Shown piece after piece: positions 43,492 through 55,300 of a stretch of DNA of 64,000 nucleotides (position 1 is the first letter of the stretch; the number at the start of each line of letters is the position of its first letter). Origin of the DNA: an uncultured Gammaproteobacteria bacterium. Lineage in GTDB: Bacteria; Patescibacteriota; Patescibacteriia; UBA2591; CAYTBZ01. Where the stretch lies: positions 33,980-97,979 of the forward strand of contig CAYTBZ010000001.1 of the NCBI GenBank assembly GCA_964436275.1, given 5' to 3'. The notes under the pieces were generated by a model, which was not told the origin of the DNA, did no database searches, and worked only from the letters and a program-made list of their open reading frames with translations. Made by a program: the position numbers and the translations under genes.

Positions 43492-45666
43492 TTAATTATC
43501 CTTAACTGGTAAAGTAAAATAAAAAGTTGAACCCTTACCTTTCCCTGGGGACTCAGCCCAGATTTTTCCGCCTTGCACCTCAATCAATCTTTTACAAATA
43601 TAAAGGCCTAAACCAGAGCCCCAAGGATTAACTTTATTATTTCTTAGACGAGAAAATTTCATAAATAATTTCTTCTTCTCTTCTGGACTAAAACCAATAC
43701 CTGTGTCTTTGACATAGACAAGAACCTCTTTTTTCTTTTCATCATACTTAAAGCCAACTGTTGCCCCTCCTTTTTCAATATATTTAATTGCATTGTCAAC
43801 AATATTTCTTAAAACTTCCCTTGTTTTCTCATAATCAAAATAAAATTCAGGAACTTCCTTTTTAGGTTTTTCAACCTTTAAATAAATACCCATTTTTTCA
43901 GCCAAAACTTTTAATTCGGATACCACATCATTGACTAACTCTTCTATATTCCCCTTCTCTTTCCGCACAGTAATTTTACCTGCTTCAATATGGGCAACAT
44001 CTAAAAAACTACCGATTAATTTTATTTGCCTTAAAGTCGCTTGATAGATATCATTAGCCACTTCTAATTGTTTTTTGTTTAATTTTCCATAATCGCCCCT
44101 TAAAAGTGCTTTAGCGTACCAACGTAAGATAGTCATTGGGGTTCTTAACTGATGCGAGACGATTCTTAAAAATTCTGACTTTGCCTGGTCTAATCTTTTT
44201 AATTCAGCATTAGCCGCTCTTAAATCTTTGGTTGCCTGGGCTACTTTTATTTTTAATTCTTCAGCAAAACGTTGTGTTTTTCTGAAGAGAAGGGCATTCT
44301 CAATAGAAATAGACGCCTGAAGAGCCAAGTTTTCCAAAAGACGAATATCTTGAACAGTAAAAGCATCACCAGATGCTTTTTCTCCTAAAAGAATCATCCC
44401 ATAAATTTCCCCTTTACTTACCAAAGGTAAAACCATGCTAATTTTTGACTTTGATAATATCTTTTTTAATTTTTCTTTCTCTTCTGGTGATAAAAGAATG
44501 ATTTCAATTTCCTGTAAAAGAATTGTCTGCTTTAACTTTTTTAAAAAGTAAAAAAGGGATTCTTTAAATGGAGAAATTACTAAACTGTCAGGTTTTTTCT
44601 TTAAAACTATTAAGTTTTCCTCACCCGGTTCTTTAACAATAACGCCAAACCTCTCAATATGTAGAGTTTCGTTAATTGTCTTATAAATTAAATTGACAAT
44701 ATCATCTAAATAAAATATCTTCGGCAGGGCTTGGGTTAATTCTTCAATCTTTCGACGGGTATCATATAAACTGGCAAAAAGATATTTATTGGCTAATTTT
44801 TCAAAAAATGATTTTATGGGAAAGAACACACTTATTGAAAGCAAAATTGCTACTGAATCAACTAAAAGCAAAAGCCCGGTTATCTTTTCACCCAAATATC
44901 GACTTACTAGCCAGACCAGTAAAACTCCCAATCCTCCAGCAACACCAAGCGAAAGCCCATAAACCGTTCCTCTTCTAACAACCACTCGAATATCAAAAAG
45001 CCGATAACGAGTAATGGCGTAGGCTAAGATGGTAACAAAAAACAATCCCGATAAAAAAGGAAAAGGAAGAATAGGGATTTCATAAGCAGGTAAATATCCT
45101 AAAGGGCCTATTAAAATTAGAATAAAGAAAGCCAAAAAGATATAATAAGATTGATTTTTCTTTATTGGCCCTGCTGATTTTTTATAATATCTGTATAAGT
45201 TAATAATAAATAGAATGAGATAGATAGAAAAGTAAATTAAAAATACATGATGAAACAATCTAGCCTTAGTATGTACCCCCCACTTATATCTGAATAATCC
45301 GCTTACAAAATAGTCAGTTCTACTAAGTATCAAAAAAAAGATAGACAATAAATATCCTAAAACTACACAAGATCTTTGTAGTTTCTCTCTGATTTTCTGA
45401 GTAAAAACTACTCCAAAGTGATAAAATAATGCGGGGATAAAAACAACGCTTCCGTAAATAAAACGGTCCCAAAAAATCGCGGATTCTCCAGCTGTGCTTC
45501 TAAACATTTTAAATGTGCCAAATAACCAATTACCTACCGCAATTGTTATGAAAAAGAAAATTAAATTGAGGGTCGTAACCTTCTTTCTGAAAAATACAAT
45601 AATACCAAGTGCAAAGACAAAAAGAGCACTTATTAAAGGAATAAGAGAGATTAAATATGTATTCAT
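43492..45666 (-). CDS. Sensor histidine kinase with N-terminal multi-TM sensor region, GAF-like domain, HisKA and HATPase_c
   Basis: H-box RIVSHQLRTPMTIL, and N, G1 (DTGIG), G2 (GSGLGL) boxes. 724 aa. Confidence 0.85.
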   Translation of the reverse strand: MNTYLISLIPLISALFVFALGIIVFFRKKVTTLNLIFFFITIAVGNWLFGTFKMFRSTAGESAIFWDRFIYGSVVFIPALFYHFGVVFTQKIREKLQRSCVVLGYLLSIFFLILSRTDYFVSGLFRYKWGVHTKARLFHHVFLIYFSIYLILFIINLYRYYKKSAGPIKKNQSYYIFLAFFILILIGPLGYLPAYEIPILPFPFLSGLFFVTILAYAITRYRLFDIRVVVRRGTVYGLSLGVAGGLGVLLVWLVSRYLGEKITGLLLLVDSVAILLSISVFFPIKSFFEKLANKYLFASLYDTRRKIEELTQALPKIFYLDDIVNLIYKTINETLHIERFGVIVKEPGEENLIVLKKKPDSLVISPFKESLFYFLKKLKQTILLQEIEIILLSPEEKEKLKKILSKSKISMVLPLVSKGEIYGMILLGEKASGDAFTVQDIRLLENLALQASISIENALLFRKTQRFAEELKIKVAQATKDLRAANAELKRLDQAKSEFLRIVSHQLRTPMTILRWYAKALLRGDYGKLNKKQLEVANDIYQATLRQIKLIGSFLDVAHIEAGKITVRKEKGNIEELVNDVVSELKVLAEKMGIYLKVEKPKKEVPEFYFDYEKTREVLRNIVDNAIKYIEKGGATVGFKYDEKKKEVLVYVKDTGIGFSPEEKKKLFMKFSRLRNNKVNPWGSGLGLYICKRLIEVQGGKIWAESPGKGKGSTFYFTLPVKDN

Positions 45667-45720
45667 AGAAATAAAATAATAACAATTTGTTTACATTATC
45701 TAGTATATCAATAGTAAACA

Positions 45721-45753
45721 AAAAATAAAAGAGGGGATTAATCAATCCCCTCT
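45721..45753 (-). terminator. Rho-independent terminator of the oxidoreductase gene (AGAGGGGATTGATTAATCCCCTCT + TTTATTTTTT on minus strand)
   Basis: 10-bp GC-containing stem followed by T-run when read on minus strand. Confidence 0.6.
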
Positions 45754-45762
45754 GCCTATGTT

Positions 45763-46809
45763 CTATCTTTTCGTTATAGTAACTTTTTTGAAAAAGTCCA
45801 TATCAACTAACTTTCCAAAAGAGGTAAAAGGAGCATGAAGAAAACCATATTTCCTTCCTAGAACAAGAATCCTTTCCATATAAGAAATATCTATTTCTCC
45901 GATATGATCAGAATGATCATTTTCTAAACACTGAATTATTGCTTCCGCCCAACAAGAAAACGTTGTCCCTGACCGGACACCAGGTACTCTTACTCCTAAT
46001 TCTATATTGGGGATATTTACCATGGCTCCGTCAATTTTAAGTAAATTCGGTCTAATCTGACGAATTATTTCATAGCTAGCTTTTGAAAGATTAGGAGGCA
46101 CAGAAACTTCATAGACCACTACTCGTTTATCTTTGTTAATATAATCTGCTTTTATAAGTGAATCGGGGTGACTTGTTGCTGTTACAATAATATCTGCTGG
46201 ATATATATCGCTTAAAGAAACAGAGGCTTTTATTTTCGCTGCTCGAGGATAAGGTAAATTACTTATAAATCTCTGGAGTCGTGTTGGATTGTGCCCTATT
46301 AAAATTAAAGACACGTCTCTCTTACATAAAGACAAGGTCAGGGCTTTACCTATCAACCCATATGCTCCGACAATAGCTATGGTAAACTCTTCTAAAGAGG
46401 TGCCCATAGCTTCTGCAATTAAATCTAAACCCTCCAGGGAAACTCCGGCCGCATAACTATCTCCGTGGGTGATAGCAGCAGTAACGCCTTCTTGAATAAC
46501 AAGCCAACGTCCTTTATCAGTAATAGAAGAAGTTAATGAGGTTAAAGCAACAAACTCTACCCCTAAATAATTTTGGGCCCAGATTACAGCATCCAAAATA
46601 TCTTTTCTGACTTTCCTTATATTACCCGGTGACATCATATCTTTTCCGGTCACACCTAGTGTAATCACATAACCCTTAGCTCTATCAAAAATATTAAATT
46701 CACCCCATACTTTATATGCGGGAAGATTTCTTTTACTTTCGCACTCCGGAAATACGGCTGGTATATCTGATTTGTCTCTTAAATTTGTAATTATAGCTAC
46801 CTTTCTCAC
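45763..46809 (-). CDS. NAD(P)-binding Rossmann-fold oxidoreductase, shikimate-DH/glutamyl-tRNA-reductase-like C-terminal half, novel N-terminal half (GTG start)
   Basis: IAIVGAYGLIGKAL dinucleotide motif, ADIIVTATSHPDSLI...VVVYEVSVPPN resembling AroE/HemA NAD domains. Confidence 0.45.
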   Translation of the reverse strand: MRKVAIITNLRDKSDIPAVFPECESKRNLPAYKVWGEFNIFDRAKGYVITLGVTGKDMMSPGNIRKVRKDILDAVIWAQNYLGVEFVALTSLTSSITDKGRWLVIQEGVTAAITHGDSYAAGVSLEGLDLIAEAMGTSLEEFTIAIVGAYGLIGKALTLSLCKRDVSLILIGHNPTRLQRFISNLPYPRAAKIKASVSLSDIYPADIIVTATSHPDSLIKADYINKDKRVVVYEVSVPPNLSKASYEIIRQIRPNLLKIDGAMVNIPNIELGVRVPGVRSGTTFSCWAEAIIQCLENDHSDHIGEIDISYMERILVLGRKYGFLHAPFTSFGKLVDMDFFKKVTITKR

Positions 46810-46930
46810 CTTTTCCTCCTTTTCTTATTTTCTCTTTCCTTAACTTAAAAAACTTAAAAAATAAAATACGCCCTCCTTTCTTTTTCCTCCTAACTTTCAA
46901 AGAACAAAATTGTAAGGTTTCTTTTCTTTT

Positions 46931-46960
46931 AAAAATAGCATAATTTTTGTGTTTTGTCAA
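46931..46960 (-). promoter_or_regulatory. Promoter TTGACA-N17-TATTTT with long leader for oxidoreductase gene; paralogous to 48169-48197
   Basis: Minus-strand reading TTGACAaaacacaaaaattatgcTATTTT. Shared downstream TTTGTTCTTTGAA motif. Confidence 0.4.
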
Positions 46961-47009
46961 TTTCCTGTACTAGAAGGGTACATAGGTAACACTTTTAGGT
47001 ATTAGGATT

Positions 47010-47067
47010 GATGGGTCGCACCCGTCAAGCTTGATGGGTGCGACCCATCAAAACAGTGCGACCCATC
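47010..47067. repeat. REP doublet (near-palindrome GATGGGTCGCACCCGTCAAGCTTGATGGGTGCGACCCATC) plus extra GTGCGACCCATC copy
   Basis: Near-identical to the 40-bp palindrome at 48797-48836. Confidence 0.7.
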
Positions 47068-47145
47068 AAAACATGTAAACCTTTAAATAATAAAGAAAAA
47101 CTTTATAATCTTGTTCATCTAAGAAAATTTTTCTCTTCTCTAAAT
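47068..47145 (-). pseudogene. Fragment of RAYT/IS200-like transposase gene (codons ~23-45, frameshifted)
   Basis: Reverse strand translates to LEKRKIFLDEQDYKVFLYYLKVYMF*, about 95% identical in DNA to 48855-48922. 11-nt deletion relative to the intact copy. Confidence 0.55.
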
Positions 47146-47146
47146 G

Positions 47147-47190
47147 ATGGGTCGCACCCATCAAAAAAGACCGGGAAAATCCCGGTCTAA
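47147..47190 (-). terminator. REP unit GGTCGCACCCATC + intrinsic terminator hairpin GACCGGGAAAATCCCGGTC (TTTTTTG on minus strand)
   Basis: Lies 38 nt downstream of stop of 47228..48109. 42-nt identical to 49102-49143. Confidence 0.6.
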
Positions 47191-47227
47191 AAAGAACTTA
47201 TTTCAGCCTCTCAACTTTGAGAAATTT

Positions 47228-48109
47228 TTATTCCTCCTCTATTCCACTGTCAAACTCAATTTTATACTTACTCATTTGGCTCAAGTCGTAATCAGTATAA
47301 ATATAACCTTCAAATGTCTTCGTCTGACCATTACTGAAATTAGAAATAATAATAAGTTCAGATTCAAGAAGATTATCATCCTCATCATAGACACTGATTC
47401 TGAAATGCGCTAAAAGATAATCCTTACCAGAGTTATTAGTCATTTCACCTATTACTTTAATATACCCTACTCCAGAGTCCTTAAAATGCACATTTTTATA
47501 AAAAAATCCTCCGGCTATACCCGTAGCTTCTTCCTCTGTGATCCCTCTTTTAAATCCTTTTGTCTTCTTCTGGATATCCCGAAACGTCTCTTCAGTTTTA
47601 TTAATCGTCTTCTTAAACTCTTCCCATCTATCCTTATCAAGTACTATGGTAACCTTTTGGGCATCTATTTTATTAACACTAACTATAGTTATGTAAGGAC
47701 CTTTGACTCCGACCTTCTTCTCAAATTCCTTTTCAAACCAAATACCAATAACCAAAAAAACATTTTCTCCTCTTATTCTATCTTCTACCGAACCAATGAT
47801 AAGAACTGAATCAGCGAGTTCCTGATAGTTCTCTTGAGTTTCCTGAAACGACTTATCTGTCTTACTAACTATCGTCTTAAGCTCTTCCCAACTATCCTTA
47901 TCCAAAAGTACAACAACTTTCTGGGAGTCAATATTATCAACATTAACTATACTTATAAAAGGACCAATCTTTTGTGCAAGGCCAGCAACCATACCTAAAT
48001 AATTCTCCTTTAGAACCATATCTTTCACTACTCCAGTAACGATAAGAGAATCAGGTTCAGCAATTAATGAGATAAATAAAAAGAGGAGAACTAATAAAAC
48101 CTTCTTCAC
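47228..48109 (-). CDS. Secreted hypothetical protein with two tandem ~90-aa repeat domains (GTG start)
   Basis: Signal-peptide-like MKKVLLVLLFLFISLIA, SD AAGGAGG. Internal DNA tandem duplication (about 47560-47700 vs 47830-47960). Confidence 0.55.
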   Translation of the reverse strand: MKKVLLVLLFLFISLIAEPDSLIVTGVVKDMVLKENYLGMVAGLAQKIGPFISIVNVDNIDSQKVVVLLDKDSWEELKTIVSKTDKSFQETQENYQELADSVLIIGSVEDRIRGENVFLVIGIWFEKEFEKKVGVKGPYITIVSVNKIDAQKVTIVLDKDRWEEFKKTINKTEETFRDIQKKTKGFKRGITEEEATGIAGGFFYKNVHFKDSGVGYIKVIGEMTNNSGKDYLLAHFRISVYDEDDNLLESELIIISNFSNGQTKTFEGYIYTDYDLSQMSKYKIEFDSGIEEE

Positions 48110-48168
48110 TTTTTACCTCCTTTGTTTTTATTGTTTTTCATCCTTTTCAAAGAACAAATTTTTCCTTA

Positions 48169-48197
48169 AAACTAGCACATCTTAAGTATCTTGTCAA
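48169..48197 (-). promoter_or_regulatory. Promoter TTGACA-N17-TAGTTT for 47228..48109, abutting REP flank
   Basis: Minus-strand reading TTGACAagatacttaagatgtgcTAGTTT, then TTTGTTCTTTGAA motif at 48146-48158. Confidence 0.4.
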
Positions 48198-48201
48198 ATT
48201 C

Positions 48202-48275
48202 TTCGTCAGGGTTTCGTCAGGGTCGCACCCTAAAAAACCAGGTCGCACCCTAAAAAACCGCGCCCTAAAACACCT
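48202..48275. repeat. Flanking repeat array: (C/T)TTCGTCAGGG x2 then 20-bp units CAGGTCGCACCCTAAAAAAC x2 plus degenerate third
   Basis: Direct tandem repeats immediately downstream of the RAYT gene. Confidence 0.7.
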
Positions 48276-48281
48276 TAAAAG

Positions 48282-48989
48282 TCATTCTAAAGTCATTTCT
48301 TTTAAAATCTCTTTAGAATCAATAATATAGTTCTCAACAAACTCTTGATAAGAAGCAAAAGCTTTTATGTCTTTATCTCCGGTTGTTTTAAAATATTGGA
48401 GAATTTCTTCTGGATGAACCCAGGAAGTTTTTCGTTCGCCTATATAATCTGGATAACTTGAATAAGAATACTCAATTAGTTTCTTGGGATCTGATCCTTT
48501 TATTAACTCCAATGGGTTACAGTGGATATATCGGGAAAGATGAAGAAGATAACTTTCTTTATCAATCAAAACTGCTTTATAACGCCCTTGGAAAAGAGAA
48601 CTAACCCTTTCATATTTTTCATTAAAATATCTAACATAAGCATTTGCCAACCGTTTCATAAATTCTCTCATTGCTCTTTCATCAATCTGTTTTAACATAA
48701 AATGAAAATGGTTTGGCATTAAACAATACGCTAAAAGTTTAACCCTTTTATAAAGATCATAATCATTACCCAGTCGAAGTATATTAAATGGTATTTGATG
48801 GGTCGCACCCGTCAAGCTTGACGGGTGCGACCCATCAAAACATGGCTCACTAAGATAAACCTTTAAATAATAAAGAAAAACTTTATAATCCTGTTCGTCT
48901 AGGAAAATTTTTCTCTTCTCTACTCCACGATTATAAACGTGATAAATTCCTCCGCTTACATATTTTTTGACTGTATTTTTAGAAGGCAT
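48282..48989 (-). CDS. REP-associated tyrosine transposase (RAYT, IS200/IS605-like HUH Y1 family)
   Basis: YHVYNRG...IFLDEQDY..FL N-terminal motif, HUH motif LMPNHFHFML, catalytic Y region (GRYKAV). 235 aa. Confidence 0.75.
   Translation of the reverse strand: MPSKNTVKKYVSGGIYHVYNRGVEKRKIFLDEQDYKVFLYYLKVYLSEPCFDGSHPSSLTGATHQIPFNILRLGNDYDLYKRVKLLAYCLMPNHFHFMLKQIDERAMREFMKRLANAYVRYFNEKYERVSSLFQGRYKAVLIDKESYLLHLSRYIHCNPLELIKGSDPKKLIEYSYSSYPDYIGERKTSWVHPEEILQYFKTTGDKDIKAFASYQEFVENYIIDSKEILKEMTLE
48797..48836. repeat. Perfect 40-bp palindrome (REP inverted doublet) inside the RAYT ORF, encoding DGSHPSSLTGATH
   Basis: GATGGGTCGCACCCGTCAAG|CTTGACGGGTGCGACCCATC, exact reverse-complement halves around AAGCTT. 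Confidence 0.8.
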
Positions 48990-49048
48990 AAATAAATAAA
49001 AACAATAAAATAAAAATAGTTTACTTTATTATACCACAAAAAGTGTGC

Positions 49049-49143
49049 TTTCGTCAGGGTTTCGTCAGGGTGCGACCTAAAACCAGGTCGCACTAAAACC
49101 AGGTCGCACCCATCAAAAAAGACCGGGAAAATCCCGGTCTAAA
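49049..49143. repeat. Flanking repeat array: TTTCGTCAGGG x2, GGGTGCGACC (inverted), GGTCGCAC, GGTCGCACCCATC, then terminator hairpin GACCGGGAAAATCCCGGTC
   Basis: Upstream of RAYT. Doubles as terminator of the AMP-binding gene (stop at 49153). Confidence 0.7.
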
Positions 49144-49152
49144 GGGGCCTAT

Positions 49153-50706
49153 TTAGCCCATTATTGTTTTCTTCATTATTTTTACTATGCTTTTCCTCCC
49201 TCCTTTTGAATATAAATTTAATATCTCTATTCTAGAAGGAACCTCTTCTGGTTTAAGCAAAGAGCGGCAGTAATTTATCAGATCCTTCTCGGTTAGTTCA
49301 GATTCCCTCCTCAAAATAACCAAAGCAATAACCTCTTCTTCAATCTGCTTCTTCTTTGTCCTCTTACCCACTACTATTGCCTGCTTCACTCCTGGATGCG
49401 ATTCCAAAACCATCTCTACCTCTTGCGGAGAAACCTCACCACCAAAAGAAGAATAAATAAGTTCATTCCTTATCTGGTCAGTAATAATTATACTTCCCCC
49501 GTTCTTTTTACCTGCTAAACCGCTTCGCCAAAATCCATTTTCCCTTTCTGCTTCTGTTCGCACTTTATCTCTCCAATATCCTCTAAACACTTGAGGTCCG
49601 GCAACCAAAAATTCTCCCATTTTTACTCTTACTTCCATGCCCTCTACTTCTGAAAAAGCGCCTCCGCTCAGACCTATAAACATAGGAAAGGCCTCTGGAA
49701 AGCCAAGAATACGGATAATTTCTACTTCTCCGGCTAATTTCTCATAGAGATTCTTCTCCAGGAATGGATTAAAACTCTGCTCCAACACGCCGATGAACCG
49801 CAGGAAAGACAGATCTGGTCTTTGGAAATCCTTTATTAATTCATTAAGAAGCCCTGGCGTTGTCCAAAGAAAAGAGTGATTTTTCCAGCGAACCAGTCCT
49901 CTCTTCAATTCATCCGAATAAAGTTTGGGGAAAACTACTGAGGAACATCCGGCTGTCAAGGAGAAAAGTAAACTAACCAACCCAGGATATTCAAAAGGAG
50001 CAAAAACGAATGCCCTTTCTTCAGGAGAAGAAAAAATCTCTGGCCGATGCTGAAGGAACCATTTACCCAATTGATAAATTGCTGCCGTGACATTGCTATG
50101 ACTTATCCCTACTAGTTCTTTACCTCTTGTTTTATAAATTATCACTGCGGCATCTTCTTCTGGAACAATATTTACTGGCGAGAAATCAGGGCTATTCTCT
50201 GCTACTAGAAGAGGAAAATGGAAAGAAGAGGAAGATTTGAATGGTCCAGGAGAGAGATGAACATTCACAATGTGCTCTAAAGAACTTCTCCTGCTCTTTC
50301 TTAGAAAGTCAAAGTCATCAACCTTATCATCTGAACAAATAGCTACTTTTGCCTGAGATTTAGAAACTACTTCTTTAATCTTCCAGGTTCTCTCACGAGG
50401 ACCAAGTAAAATAGCCACCGCACCTATCCTATTCAATGCCAAAAAAGAGATAACAAACTGGAAGCAATTAGGCAAACAGATAATCACCCGGTCACCCTTT
50501 TTCACCCCAATCTTTTGCAAAGCATTGGCAAAGCGCTGACTCTTTTCCTGTAATTCTTGATAACTCATTTTCTTTCTATCTACTCCAGAAATAAGGGCTG
50601 GCTTTTCCGGATTATACTTAACCATATCATCGAAAACAGCATAAGGAGGGATAAAATGAAGATAAATCTCATCAAATAATCTGTGTACATCTCTCGCCTC
50701 GGCCAT
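49153..50706 (-). CDS. AMP-dependent synthetase/ligase (acyl-CoA synthetase / adenylation-domain family)
   Basis: AMP-binding superfamily layout. 517 aa. Confidence 0.75.
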   Translation of the reverse strand: MAEARDVHRLFDEIYLHFIPPYAVFDDMVKYNPEKPALISGVDRKKMSYQELQEKSQRFANALQKIGVKKGDRVIICLPNCFQFVISFLALNRIGAVAILLGPRERTWKIKEVVSKSQAKVAICSDDKVDDFDFLRKSRRSSLEHIVNVHLSPGPFKSSSSFHFPLLVAENSPDFSPVNIVPEEDAAVIIYKTRGKELVGISHSNVTAAIYQLGKWFLQHRPEIFSSPEERAFVFAPFEYPGLVSLLFSLTAGCSSVVFPKLYSDELKRGLVRWKNHSFLWTTPGLLNELIKDFQRPDLSFLRFIGVLEQSFNPFLEKNLYEKLAGEVEIIRILGFPEAFPMFIGLSGGAFSEVEGMEVRVKMGEFLVAGPQVFRGYWRDKVRTEAERENGFWRSGLAGKKNGGSIIITDQIRNELIYSSFGGEVSPQEVEMVLESHPGVKQAIVVGKRTKKKQIEEEVIALVILRRESELTEKDLINYCRSLLKPEEVPSRIEILNLYSKGGRKSIVKIMKKTIMG

Positions 50707-54920: not shown

Positions 54921-54936
54921 AAAAATTATTAAAGAT

Positions 54937-55300
54937 GGTTAAGCAGACCTATAAGCCGAGTTCTGTACTCCAAAAAGGAGCGACGGCTATTTATCTGGAC
55001 CGGTTATTACTAACCGGCTCTAACGACCTACCAAAATTTGGTCTTTCACCCGGGTAAGGATTTAGCCGTTTCACCTCGGTTTTTTGACCTCTTTTATAAC
55101 CGAGCTCAGCCTGATTAATAAGAAGAGGTCCAGGCTGCCCTTAGATTACTCCTTGGGCGTCTCTGTTCGCACCTCTATCCCGCTAAAAGCGGGACGACGG
55201 GTGTTACCCGCTACCCTTTTTCTCTTCTTAAAGAAGAGAGAGTGCTCGGACTTTCCTCTCTGTCTGATTAAGACAGAGCAGCCGTCCGGTCTGCTTAACC
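54937..55300 (-). ncRNA. rnpB: RNase P RNA (bacterial type A)
   Basis: Minus strand reads 5'-GGUUAAGCAGACC...GAGAGGAAAGUCCGAGCACUCUC (P4 5' strand)...ACAGAACUCGGCUUAUAGGUCUGCUUAACC-3' (P4 3' strand, P1 closing). GC-rich island. The overlapping plus ORF is spurious. Confidence 0.8.

Follow-up and report, generated by a model that had tools for sequence, protein, structure and literature searches.

To which kind of system do the short GC-rich repeats of contig CAYTBZ010000001.1, and the Y1 HUH protein of 235 residues encoded among them, belong? The question concerns a 2.1-kb island in the 64-kb stretch of DNA analysed here as a whole (the window). An earlier note saw in it a classical system of repetitive extragenic palindromes (REPs) and a REP-associated tyrosine transposase (RAYT). 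The biology of RAYT/REP systems has been worked out almost wholly in Proteobacteria, and we know of no DNA partner or function for the largest related subclass of Y1 proteins (named 2.1, Group 1 or TIRYT). The earlier note is right in kind but wrong in class, because the locus does not qualify as a REP/RAYT system of the classical, genome-wide type. It is probably a REPtron- or TIRtron-like unit of a class-2 Y1 HUH protein (RAYT- or TIRYT-like) that belongs to a large, Patescibacteria-specific branch. The evidence lies in the fold and catalytic motifs of the protein, in cognate hairpins that covary with the gene and occupy fixed sites, and in breakpoints of strain rearrangements that coincide with these hairpins.

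The repeats are abundant in the island and confined to it. With left and right flanks of ~9.4 kb (L094) and ~9 kb (L097) added, the contig provides ~82 kb of contiguous sequence, and the island is base-for-base identical in an ENA contig of a different assembly record. The 10-mer GGTCGCACCC/GGGTGCGACC has nine exact copies in the window, all within 47014-49111, with an expectation of 0.01 in shuffled sequence (none of 100 shuffles attains nine), and a search of the window with one mismatch allowed adds no further copies. The 7-mer core GTCGCAC is found 11 times, always in 47015-49109, for 0.38 expected; the 'at least ten' copies of the earlier note thus hold for this core but not for the exact 10-mer. 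Outside the island the core has zero copies in the remainder of the ~82 kb (the other ~62 kb of the window and ~18 kb of flanks). Collectively, this indicates that the repeat family is real, well past chance and strictly local over this distance.

The repeat unit is a hairpin of ~21 nt with a 9-bp stem and a 3-nt loop (TTGATGGGT-CGC-ACCCATCAA), of general form TTGAYGGGT-SSS-ACCCRTCAA. Sequences of this kind are the type A hairpin (TTGATGGGTCGCACCCATCAA), the type B unit (CAGGGTCGCACCCTAAAA), TTGAYGGGTSSSACCCRTCAA and the RGGTCGCACCY core. As the earlier note had seen, some units stand in tandem with a 20-nt spacing (48221/48241); others are spaced by 16-17 nt (49070/49087/49103). The two inverted doublets it described are likewise present (47008-47052 and 48794-48839), the latter being a perfect 46-bp palindrome. 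That the repeats surround the gene is correct for the upstream (U) and downstream (D) arrays that flank it, but one doublet lies inside the open reading frame (ORF), in frame, at codons 51-65 (FDGSHPSSLTGATHQ). A 42-nt module made of hairpin and terminator is present twice with 100% identity (47150-47191 and 49102-49143), in agreement with the duplicated terminators reported before. The alleged second, degenerate transposase copy exists as a duplicate at 47008-47142 of a 135-nt part of the 5′ region of the RAYT-like gene, covering hidden Markov model (HMM) positions 23-46 and the palindrome; it is a fragment and not a degenerate full copy.

In the Joint Genome Institute (JGI) metagenomes, scanned with the 20-mer TGATGGGTCGCACCCRTCAA, the hairpin occurs in nine stretches only, from several low-GC organisms. 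In two of them (L004 and L005), both from other organisms, a homologue of the gene is flanked by the same hairpin as in the window, and the homologue of L004 has no in-ORF palindrome and reads PDNKKK at its place. The remaining seven stretches (L002, L003 and L006-L010) carry solo or paired hairpin copies, mostly between ORFs. Since Rfam matches in the window and in the solo-hairpin loci are limited to RNase P and tRNAs, no known RNA family covers the hairpins. In one of these loci (L002, 230-330), the solo hairpin stands directly before a T-arm-like sequence (GGTTCGAGTCC) and after another GC hairpin (GGGACGTCCGACGTCCC). An assignment of this hairpin to a tRNA or tmRNA was dropped, as ARAGORN and Rfam call neither there; the element may be what is left of a tRNA-like sequence, or an RNA of unrecognised kind.

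The protein belongs to the Y1 HUH enzymes, as the earlier note had proposed and as its profile now confirms. It matches Pfam Y1_Tnp (PF01797) over residues 81-156 with 39.4 bits (E 7.6e-10) for a gathering score of 23 bits. The HUH motif is H94-F95-H96 and the putative catalytic tyrosine is Y154 in RYIHCNP, both invariant in the 23 relatives of alignment A1. The tyrosine motif is of the class-2 type Y---NP (YIHCNP), and the C-terminal tail carries YSYSSY. In the AlphaFold (AF2) model, with a predicted local distance difference test (pLDDT) score of 79, Y154 is borne by a predicted helix (145-161) and the tail is helical; a ferredoxin-like HUH fold is evident in this model. Foldseek against the PDB ranks E. 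coli TnpA-REP bound to its REP hairpin first (4er8_A, E 9.1e-6), so that the nearest solved structure is that of a REP-associated transposase, and the TnpA proteins of IS608 and ISDra2 next (2a6o and 2xma; probability 1.00). Among PDB sequences the family profile matched ISDra2 only, and weakly (E ~2e-3); the link with TnpA-REP required fold comparison. The NCBIfam RAYT equivalog NF047646 (REP_Tyr_transpos) scores 42.3 bits, below its cut-off of 80. In the same NCBIfam scan no IS200 TnpA is matched and the TnpB model is negligible (13.5 bits for a cut-off of 425). At E<=0.01, the Pfam scan returns Y1_Tnp alone, with no C-terminal helix-turn-helix (HTH)-like domain (Bac_DnaA_C, HTH_23 or HTH_28).

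Relatives of the protein are numerous. At least 7,936 proteins are found at E<=0.001, mostly from Patescibacteria, which contradicts the rarity in reduced genomes suggested by the earlier note. Of 599 candidate stretches in GTDB, 569 encode a relative, and these come overwhelmingly from Microgenomates-type Patescibacteria metagenome-assembled genomes (MAGs). Two or three divergent paralogues per genome are frequent, divergence across the family corresponds to ~45-55% amino acid identity, and many homologues lie on short contigs. Record titles of many carrier MAGs (L012, L024, L034, L036 and others, third-party annotation assemblies) read 'uncultured Gammaproteobacteria/Pseudomonadales bacterium', and two (L038 and L055) name a Bathyarchaeia or Nanoarchaeia archaeon; mislabelled or contaminated bins are the probable reason, transfer being the other possibility.

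The association of gene and hairpin is a property of the family. It was surveyed in 80 homologous loci (L011-L090) from Patescibacteria MAGs of GTDB, the hairpin being defined as a locus-specific GC-rich 9-mer with at least three copies within the gene ±400 bp. Such a 9-mer is present in 69 of the 80 loci (e.g. AGGTCGGAC, AGGTGGCAC, AGGTCTCAC, AGGACAGTC and GGAGAATCC), with 273 copies in ~101 kb near the genes versus 32 in 958 kb of flanks. Repeat blocks, delimited by repetition alone and then compared with 200 shuffles per locus, are self-complementary: the median stem is 5 versus 2.6 in the shuffles, and in 40 of the 69 loci the stem equals or exceeds the maximum of the shuffles. Paralogues differ by compensatory stem changes on a common frame, TGACARGGTC-N-GACCYTGTCA (the family consensus), and different motifs accompany the paralogues of one genome (L034, L043 and L070). 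At the level of sequence comparison, the hairpins are cognate to the Y1 gene and covary with the paralogue. The cognate nature assigned to the repeats by the earlier note is thus borne out, both by the hairpin shared with the homologues of L004 and L005 and by the separate variant owned by each paralogue.

The hairpins occupy four fixed sites. The upstream site lies at a median of 36 nt before the ATG and the downstream site at a median of 17 nt after the stop. In-ORF copies form two narrow clusters, at HMM positions 46-66 (in1) and 150-163 (in2), with none between and few scattered elsewhere. These clusters correspond to two surface loops that bracket the HUH-Tyr catalytic core. All three frames are used equally (11/14/11 and 16/16/15), both orientations are found and the encoded peptides are unrelated; the conserved entity is therefore the nucleic acid hairpin and not the peptide. 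A simple insertion as source of the in-ORF hairpins was rejected, as loops with the motif are just 2-4 residues longer than motif-free loops. The latter probably contain decayed hairpin copies. In the window, the motif is carried by the U, in1 and D sites, in1 being a double, REPIN-like copy. The in1 site falls in a loop of variable length in A1, and in the model residues 53-64 have pLDDT<50, so the segment encoded by in1 is predicted as a disordered loop. A small palindrome within the gene (Table 1) agrees in position with the in2 cluster of the family, and the GSDPK peptide recurs at in2 of four other loci (L020, L024, L044 and L052), where it is encoded by GGGTCCGACCC. From its sequence and place, the palindrome of the window probably descends from a second in-ORF hairpin, of which it would be a relic.

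The upstream hairpin is often part of a promoter. In 30 of the 80 loci it fills the spacer (16-18 nt) of a promoter with TTGnnA...TAnnnT elements, the -10 of which ends 3-10 nt before the ATG, an arrangement found at 0.3% of random positions and 5.6% of other ORFs used as controls. Examples, 40 nt upstream of the ATG, are L034, L064, L069 and L070, with TTGACA or TTGCAA...TAnnnT elements. The short distance between the -10 element and the ATG implies leaderless mRNAs. Cognate hairpins also stand on either side of a gene adjacent to the RAYT-like gene in L088, L013 (a gene of 2,713 codons) and L029; in L053 the bracketed gene is less clean, with the distal hairpin inside the gene end.

Close strains differ at the hairpins. 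Six are compared, namely the window and five further contigs (L092, i.e. GCA_053996735.1, L099, L100, L101 and L102) reached by exact look-ups and sharing 97-99% identity with it; among distinct relatives, L091 stands nearest. The RAYT-like gene has the same chromosomal neighbourhood in all of them, L091 included. Downstream of the gene, the six strains show three haplotypes. In haplotype 1 (window and L100) the gene is directly followed by the 293-aa gene. Haplotype 2 (L092, L099 and L101) has an additional module of 1,473 bp, at window junction 48270/48271 in the D array, made of a hairpin cluster, a similar promoter, a 394-aa beta-helix/Por_Secre_tail gene and a terminator; its left break lies inside a hairpin loop, between GGTG and CGAC. 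In haplotype 3 (L102) a single hairpin precedes a second AMP-binding gene, as in L091. Smaller differences affect the repeat units, as the U array of the window has one 16-nt unit more than five other strains, and an 18-nt half-hairpin duplication in the gene fragment (copy B) is present in the window and L099 and not in L092 and L101. In the window, copy B is limited by the second in1 palindrome (in1′) and by the hairpin at 47145. In L091, terminator and hairpin are fused exactly at in1, with deletion of the N-terminus; the gene has a premature stop and a different surrounding gene order, its product is 82% identical to that of the window and the adjoining histidine kinase (HisK) 59%. The island is thus a site of plasticity, as the earlier note had expected. 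Its terms 'cargo' and 'active' went further and are inferences, of which activity receives only indirect support, from the strain differences.

Several observations accompany these comparisons. The stretch from the glycosyltransferase cluster to the HisKA_7TM kinase (window 43492-50706) is hypervariable with respect to L091 and L102; its AMP-binding and Shikimate_DH-like genes are paralogues with just 31-34% identity, beside the 59% of HisK and 82% of the RAYT-like protein. The product of the 394-aa gene (L092 8652-9836; also in L099 and L101) combines a beta-helix with a Por_Secre_tail domain, a sorting domain of type IX secretion. Type IX secretion is regarded as specific to Bacteroidota, so that this domain is unexpected in a Patescibacteria-like genome. 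Two members of the cluster of the window protein were set aside. The 69-aa P0124 was rejected as a variant allele, for its frame crosses the palindrome and returns on the opposite strand, as in a fold-back contig, and it is probably an assembly artefact. The 219-aa P0122 opens within the hairpin, which joins the gene at HMM position 23, and runs on to a complete C-terminus; an excised circle, a tandem copy or a k-mer assembly that mixed the two 135-nt copies could each yield this junction, which is not used as evidence.

Known systems resemble the locus in part. With E. coli TnpA-REP (RayT/YafM; subclass 2.2; 4ER8) it shares the Y1 HUH fold, as best structural match, and the Y---NP motif, and with the E. 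coli REPtron a gene flanked by cognate short GC-rich hairpins, some in inverted pairs, that covary with the paralogue. It departs from them by a sequence identity of 14%, a score below the NCBIfam equivalog cut-off, an extra C-terminal tail of ~70 aa and hairpins within the ORF, as well as by a hairpin foot that is TGAC/TTGA and not GTAG and by the lack of high-copy dispersal in the ~82 kb. The signature of subclass 2.1 is closer, with NH[YF]H, FQ, Y[IV]HxNP, an SS tail motif and a median length of 238 aa (PMC6006769, Table 1), to which correspond NHFH, FQ, YIHCNP, YSYSSY and 235 aa in the present protein. Subclass 2.1 (Quentin et al. 2018) corresponds to the RAYT Group 1 of Bertels et al. 2017 and probably to the TIRYT/TIRtron of Di Nocera et al. 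2013. Group 1 has low-copy flanking repeats, with ~12 genome-wide occurrences of 16-mers (PMC5581495), and the present family is similar in its low-copy flanking repeats and its several divergent copies per genome. Subclass 2.1 is reported without REP-like structures nearby (PMC6006769), or with long terminal inverted repeats of consensus GGGGWSAS. The present repeats are short, self-complementary hairpins built on an RGGTC-N-GACCY core, loosely similar to GGGGWSAS but not the same, and the protein has no detected HTH or DnaA_C-like tail domain; the studies of subclass 2.1 did not sample Patescibacteria. In the literature searched on RAYT/TnpA-REP in Patescibacteria and the Candidate Phyla Radiation (CPR), no description of the Patescibacteria branch or of the four-site layout was found.

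In-frame copies of the repeat inside the gene of the enzyme itself have a precedent in subclass 2.4 of Cyanobacteria and Bacteroidetes, where REPs are inserted in the tnpA-REP gene without breaking the frame (PMC6006769). There, the REP lies between HuH and Y and the motifs are WQ and YIxNNP, whereas in the present family the copies lie before HuH and after Y (HMM 46-66 and 150-163) and the motifs are FQ and YIHxNP. The TnpA of IS200/IS608 (subclass 1.1) has the same fold and HUH/Tyr chemistry, and its recognition of subterminal hairpins on single-stranded DNA serves as mechanistic template; its length of ~150 aa, Y---Q motif and multicopy, near-identical insertion sequences (ISs), often with tnpB, do not apply to the locus. 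Integron attC cassettes offer an analogy only: palindromes foldable on single-stranded DNA bound single genes beside a recombinase gene, and strains differ by cassettes. Unlike integrons, the locus has no IntI tyrosine recombinase, attI or common Pc promoter, and its modules, of which only one or two are present, carry their own promoters.

Several explanations of these facts were weighed. A classical REP/RAYT system, in which a domesticated single-copy RAYT spreads REPs and REPINs through extragenic space genome-wide and the island is its REPtron, would account for cognate palindromes around the gene, a REPIN-like inverted doublet, TnpA-REP as top structural match, solo 20-mer copies that further low-GC organisms carry in intergenic DNA (L002, L003 and L006-L010) and the few distant copies in the family loci (32 in 958 kb). 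It is nevertheless improbable. No 7-mer core exists beyond the island in ~82 kb, the 20-mer is found in just nine stretches of all the JGI metagenomes, the GT[AG]G foot is absent and replaced by TTGA/TGAC, REP_Tyr_transpos reaches 42.3 bits out of the 80 needed, the signature is that of subclass 2.1 and not of the REP-associated subclasses 2.2 or 2.5 (PMC6006769), and genomes have two or three divergent paralogues. Transposition of the whole U-to-D unit as an autonomous IS200-like insertion sequence is highly improbable: Y---NP is not the Y---Q of TnpA-IS200 (PMC6006769), NCBIfam gives no IS200 TnpA match, a second full copy is lacking in ~82 kb, paralogues within a genome are divergent and not near-identical, and the chromosomal neighbourhood is the same in the six close strains and L091. 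Against this stand the Y1 transposase fold with subterminal hairpins, the many homologues on short contigs and the 82% identity of the RAYT-like protein to its L091 counterpart versus 59% for HisK. There is also little likelihood that the protein is solely a domesticated sequence- and structure-specific binder of DNA (or RNA), with operators, terminator and roadblocks as its sites and rearrangements as side effects, even if in 30 of 80 loci (versus 0.3% and 5.6% in the controls) the upstream hairpin fills the 17 nt between the elements of a sigma70-like promoter of leaderless type, the downstream hairpin follows the stop at a median of 17 nt and the -35 element of the window is supplied by the U repeats. 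The HUH and Tyr catalytic residues are invariant, and autoregulation alone leaves solo intergenic copies, bracketed neighbour genes and half-hairpin arrays unexplained; regulation is compatible with the favoured explanation as an added function, not as a replacement.

A further alternative is passive instability. Replication slippage, RecA-type recombination or the processing of cruciforms might rearrange hairpins and direct repeats, and the Y1 protein would have another role in these events, or none. Indel junctions do lie in direct-repeat arrays, pseudogenised copies keep their hairpins (L091, L099 and L100), and a nonsense allele is found on haplotypes with and without the module. This reading is unlikely, as it leaves unexplained the paralogue-specific hairpin variants, the four fixed positions (two of them in protein loops) in 69 of 80 loci at ~45-55% amino acid identity, and the identity of in-ORF copies to the flanking ones. 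A number of points do weigh against the RAYT/TIRYT-like unit as explanation. Where direct repeats and hairpins are present, replication slippage or homologous recombination can yield identical indels and requires no enzyme. The nonsense allele, a common GGA->TGA mutation at codon 164 of the RAYT-like gene and inside the in2 relic palindrome, is shared by L099 (2356-2361), which has the module, and L100, which lacks it; the indel or its spread is thus not obviously dependent on a functional local copy, and either recombination between strains or a recurrent indel is indicated. Hairpin orientation varies at the four sites, which makes a strictly strand-specific scheme awkward. The promoter of the window departs from the family layout by a longer leader, with a -10 element that ends 39 nt before the ATG. 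Finally, subclass 2.1 fits by the motif signatures of a published table and not by phylogeny.

With TnpA-REP and IS608 TnpA as templates (PMC6006769, PMC3479197), a mechanism can be proposed for the REPtron- or TIRtron-like unit. The protein would bind its own hairpin on single-stranded DNA, cut next to or inside it by means of Y154 and the HUH metal site, and rejoin the cut end to another nearby hairpin, acting mostly in cis and locally. Expected products would be arrays of half-hairpin units, hairpin-to-hairpin deletions or duplications, and gain or loss of hairpin-bounded modules of promoter and gene. Copies would also land in the gene of the enzyme itself, the survivors being those free of stops and located in loops. 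By this analogy we infer catalysis, a single-stranded DNA substrate and the enzyme, in place of slippage or recombination, as the cause of the rearrangements; the invariance of the HUH and Tyr residues across the family argues for retained catalysis. Autoregulation is a likely additional role, since family members usually have their upstream hairpin in the spacer of a leaderless-type promoter.

It is tempting to go further and to see in the hairpins the recombination sites of a Y1 HUH cassette system, a single-strand analogue of integrons in which modules are captured, excised and swapped beside the enzyme gene. This extension is distinctly unlikely as it stands. The three haplotypes at the D cluster, the deletion at in1 in L091 and the hairpin-bracketed genes of L088, L013 and L029 (less cleanly L053) point in its direction, as would, with the reservation made above, the P0122 junction if it stems from a circle or tandem copy. 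With similarly slender probability, the cassettes would be the 293-aa FxLYD protein, the 394-aa beta-helix/Por_Secre_tail protein and the giant surface proteins at other loci. Because two in-ORF hairpins bracket the catalytic core, this core could itself be excisable or exchangeable between paralogues, as a self-limiting switch or by module shuffling.

The layout of the island, as given by promoter, terminator, direct and inverted repeat, Pfam, NCBIfam, Rfam and ARAGORN scans, is compiled in Table 1; all its genes are on the minus strand.

Table 1. Features of the hairpin island, in minus-strand order, followed by the copies of the 10-mer (window positions)
Feature	Position	Strand	Basis or remark
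AMP-binding enzyme (AMP-ligase) gene	49153-50706	-	first in minus-strand order
42-nt module downstream of AMP-ligase gene: half hairpin and intrinsic-terminator-like hairpin (AGACCGGGATTTTCCCGGTCT+T6)	49102-49143	-	terminator scan
Upstream (U) array: 2x TTTCGTCAGGG, then three 16-17-nt units with GTGCGAC/GTCGCAC cores	49050-49116	.	repeats D4, D7
235-aa Y1 HUH (RAYT/TIRYT-like) gene	48282-48989	-	Pfam Y1_Tnp, invariant motifs, fold match
Site in1: 46-bp perfect palindrome of two inverted hairpins (TTTGATGGGTCGCACCCGTCAAG followed by CTTGACGGGTGCGACCCATCAAA)	48794-48839	.	repeat I3, 100% complementary
Site in2: small palindrome GGATCTGATCC (gene strand GGATCAGATCC; KGSDPK, residues 163-168)	48487-48497	.	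read from sequence
Downstream (D) array: 2x TTCGTCAGGGT and three ACCCTAAAA(A)ACC units, CGC/GCG loops between	48202-48275	.	repeats D4, D7
Promoter/5′ untranslated region (5′UTR) of 293-aa gene	48110-48201	-	alignment A2
293-aa gene, between hairpin clusters	47228-48109	-	ORF list; repeat D1
Complete hairpin TGATGGGTCGCACCCATCAA and second terminator copy	47145-47191	-	repeat and terminator scans
RAYT-like gene fragment (HMM positions 23-46), joined directly to hairpin at 47145	47056-47142	-	hmmsearch E 1.1e-10; repeats D2, D3
Second in1 palindrome copy (in1′), 95% self-complementary	47008-47052	.	repeats D5, I1, I4
Predicted promoter of 348-aa Shikimate_DH-like oxidoreductase gene; paralogous to 293-aa gene promoter	46932-46960	-	promoter scan, A2
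Copies of the 10-mer	47014, 47036, 47150, 48221, 48241, 48801, 48823, 49068, 49102		exact match

The copy of the 42-nt module that follows the AMP-ligase gene is 97.7% identical to its L091 counterpart. The U array overlaps and supplies the -35 element of the RAYT promoter predicted by the promoter scan (49057-49028; CTGACG-18-TATAAT), and the D array is a direct repeat of it. The promoter/5′UTR region of the 293-aa gene, compared in A2, is similar to those upstream of the oxidoreductase gene and of the 394-aa gene of L092 (8517-8560, 86.7% match with window 48197-48153); this agrees with the duplicated promoters of the earlier note. The 293-aa protein has a signal-peptide-like N-terminus, an internal duplication of 137 nt and a C-terminal FxLYD domain (NCBIfam FxLYD_dom, 1.7e-7). 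In copy B of the RAYT-like gene, the tandem half-hairpin duplication covers 47038-47055 and 47056-47073. Between in1′ and the oxidoreductase promoter, 46961-47007 contains an imperfect palindrome (CCTGTAC-N7-GTACATAGG) that resembles the GTACAGGT-NNN-ACCTGTAC hairpins of the L029 paralogue and may, by this resemblance, be the remnant of another hairpin type. Elsewhere in the window, a bacterial class A RNase P RNA (54936-55297, minus strand, 125 bits) is the sole Rfam match at gathering level. GC skew is negative in all 2-kb bins of 1-64000 (-0.11 to -0.30); with the genes of the island area all on the minus strand, this uniformity fits a single replichore and strong co-orientation.

The interest of the locus lies in the regularities of the family, with hairpins fixed inside the ORF and embedded in promoters, and in a cassette-like variation between strains. 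A large branch of Patescibacteria with the signature of subclass 2.1 now has a clear cognate hairpin, in ~70 related loci. This hairpin takes four fixed positions, two of them within the coding sequence in any frame, and upstream of the gene it forms part of a leaderless-type promoter. It is precisely at the hairpins that close strains differ in their content of whole genes and repeat units, which gives a handle on the variation of surface and secreted proteins in the tiny, recombination-poor genomes of the CPR. For biochemistry, an oligonucleotide of 21 nt is a concrete substrate. For the family itself, the in-ORF copies are a natural case of selection on DNA structure that overrides peptide sequence in the loops of the enzyme's own fold.

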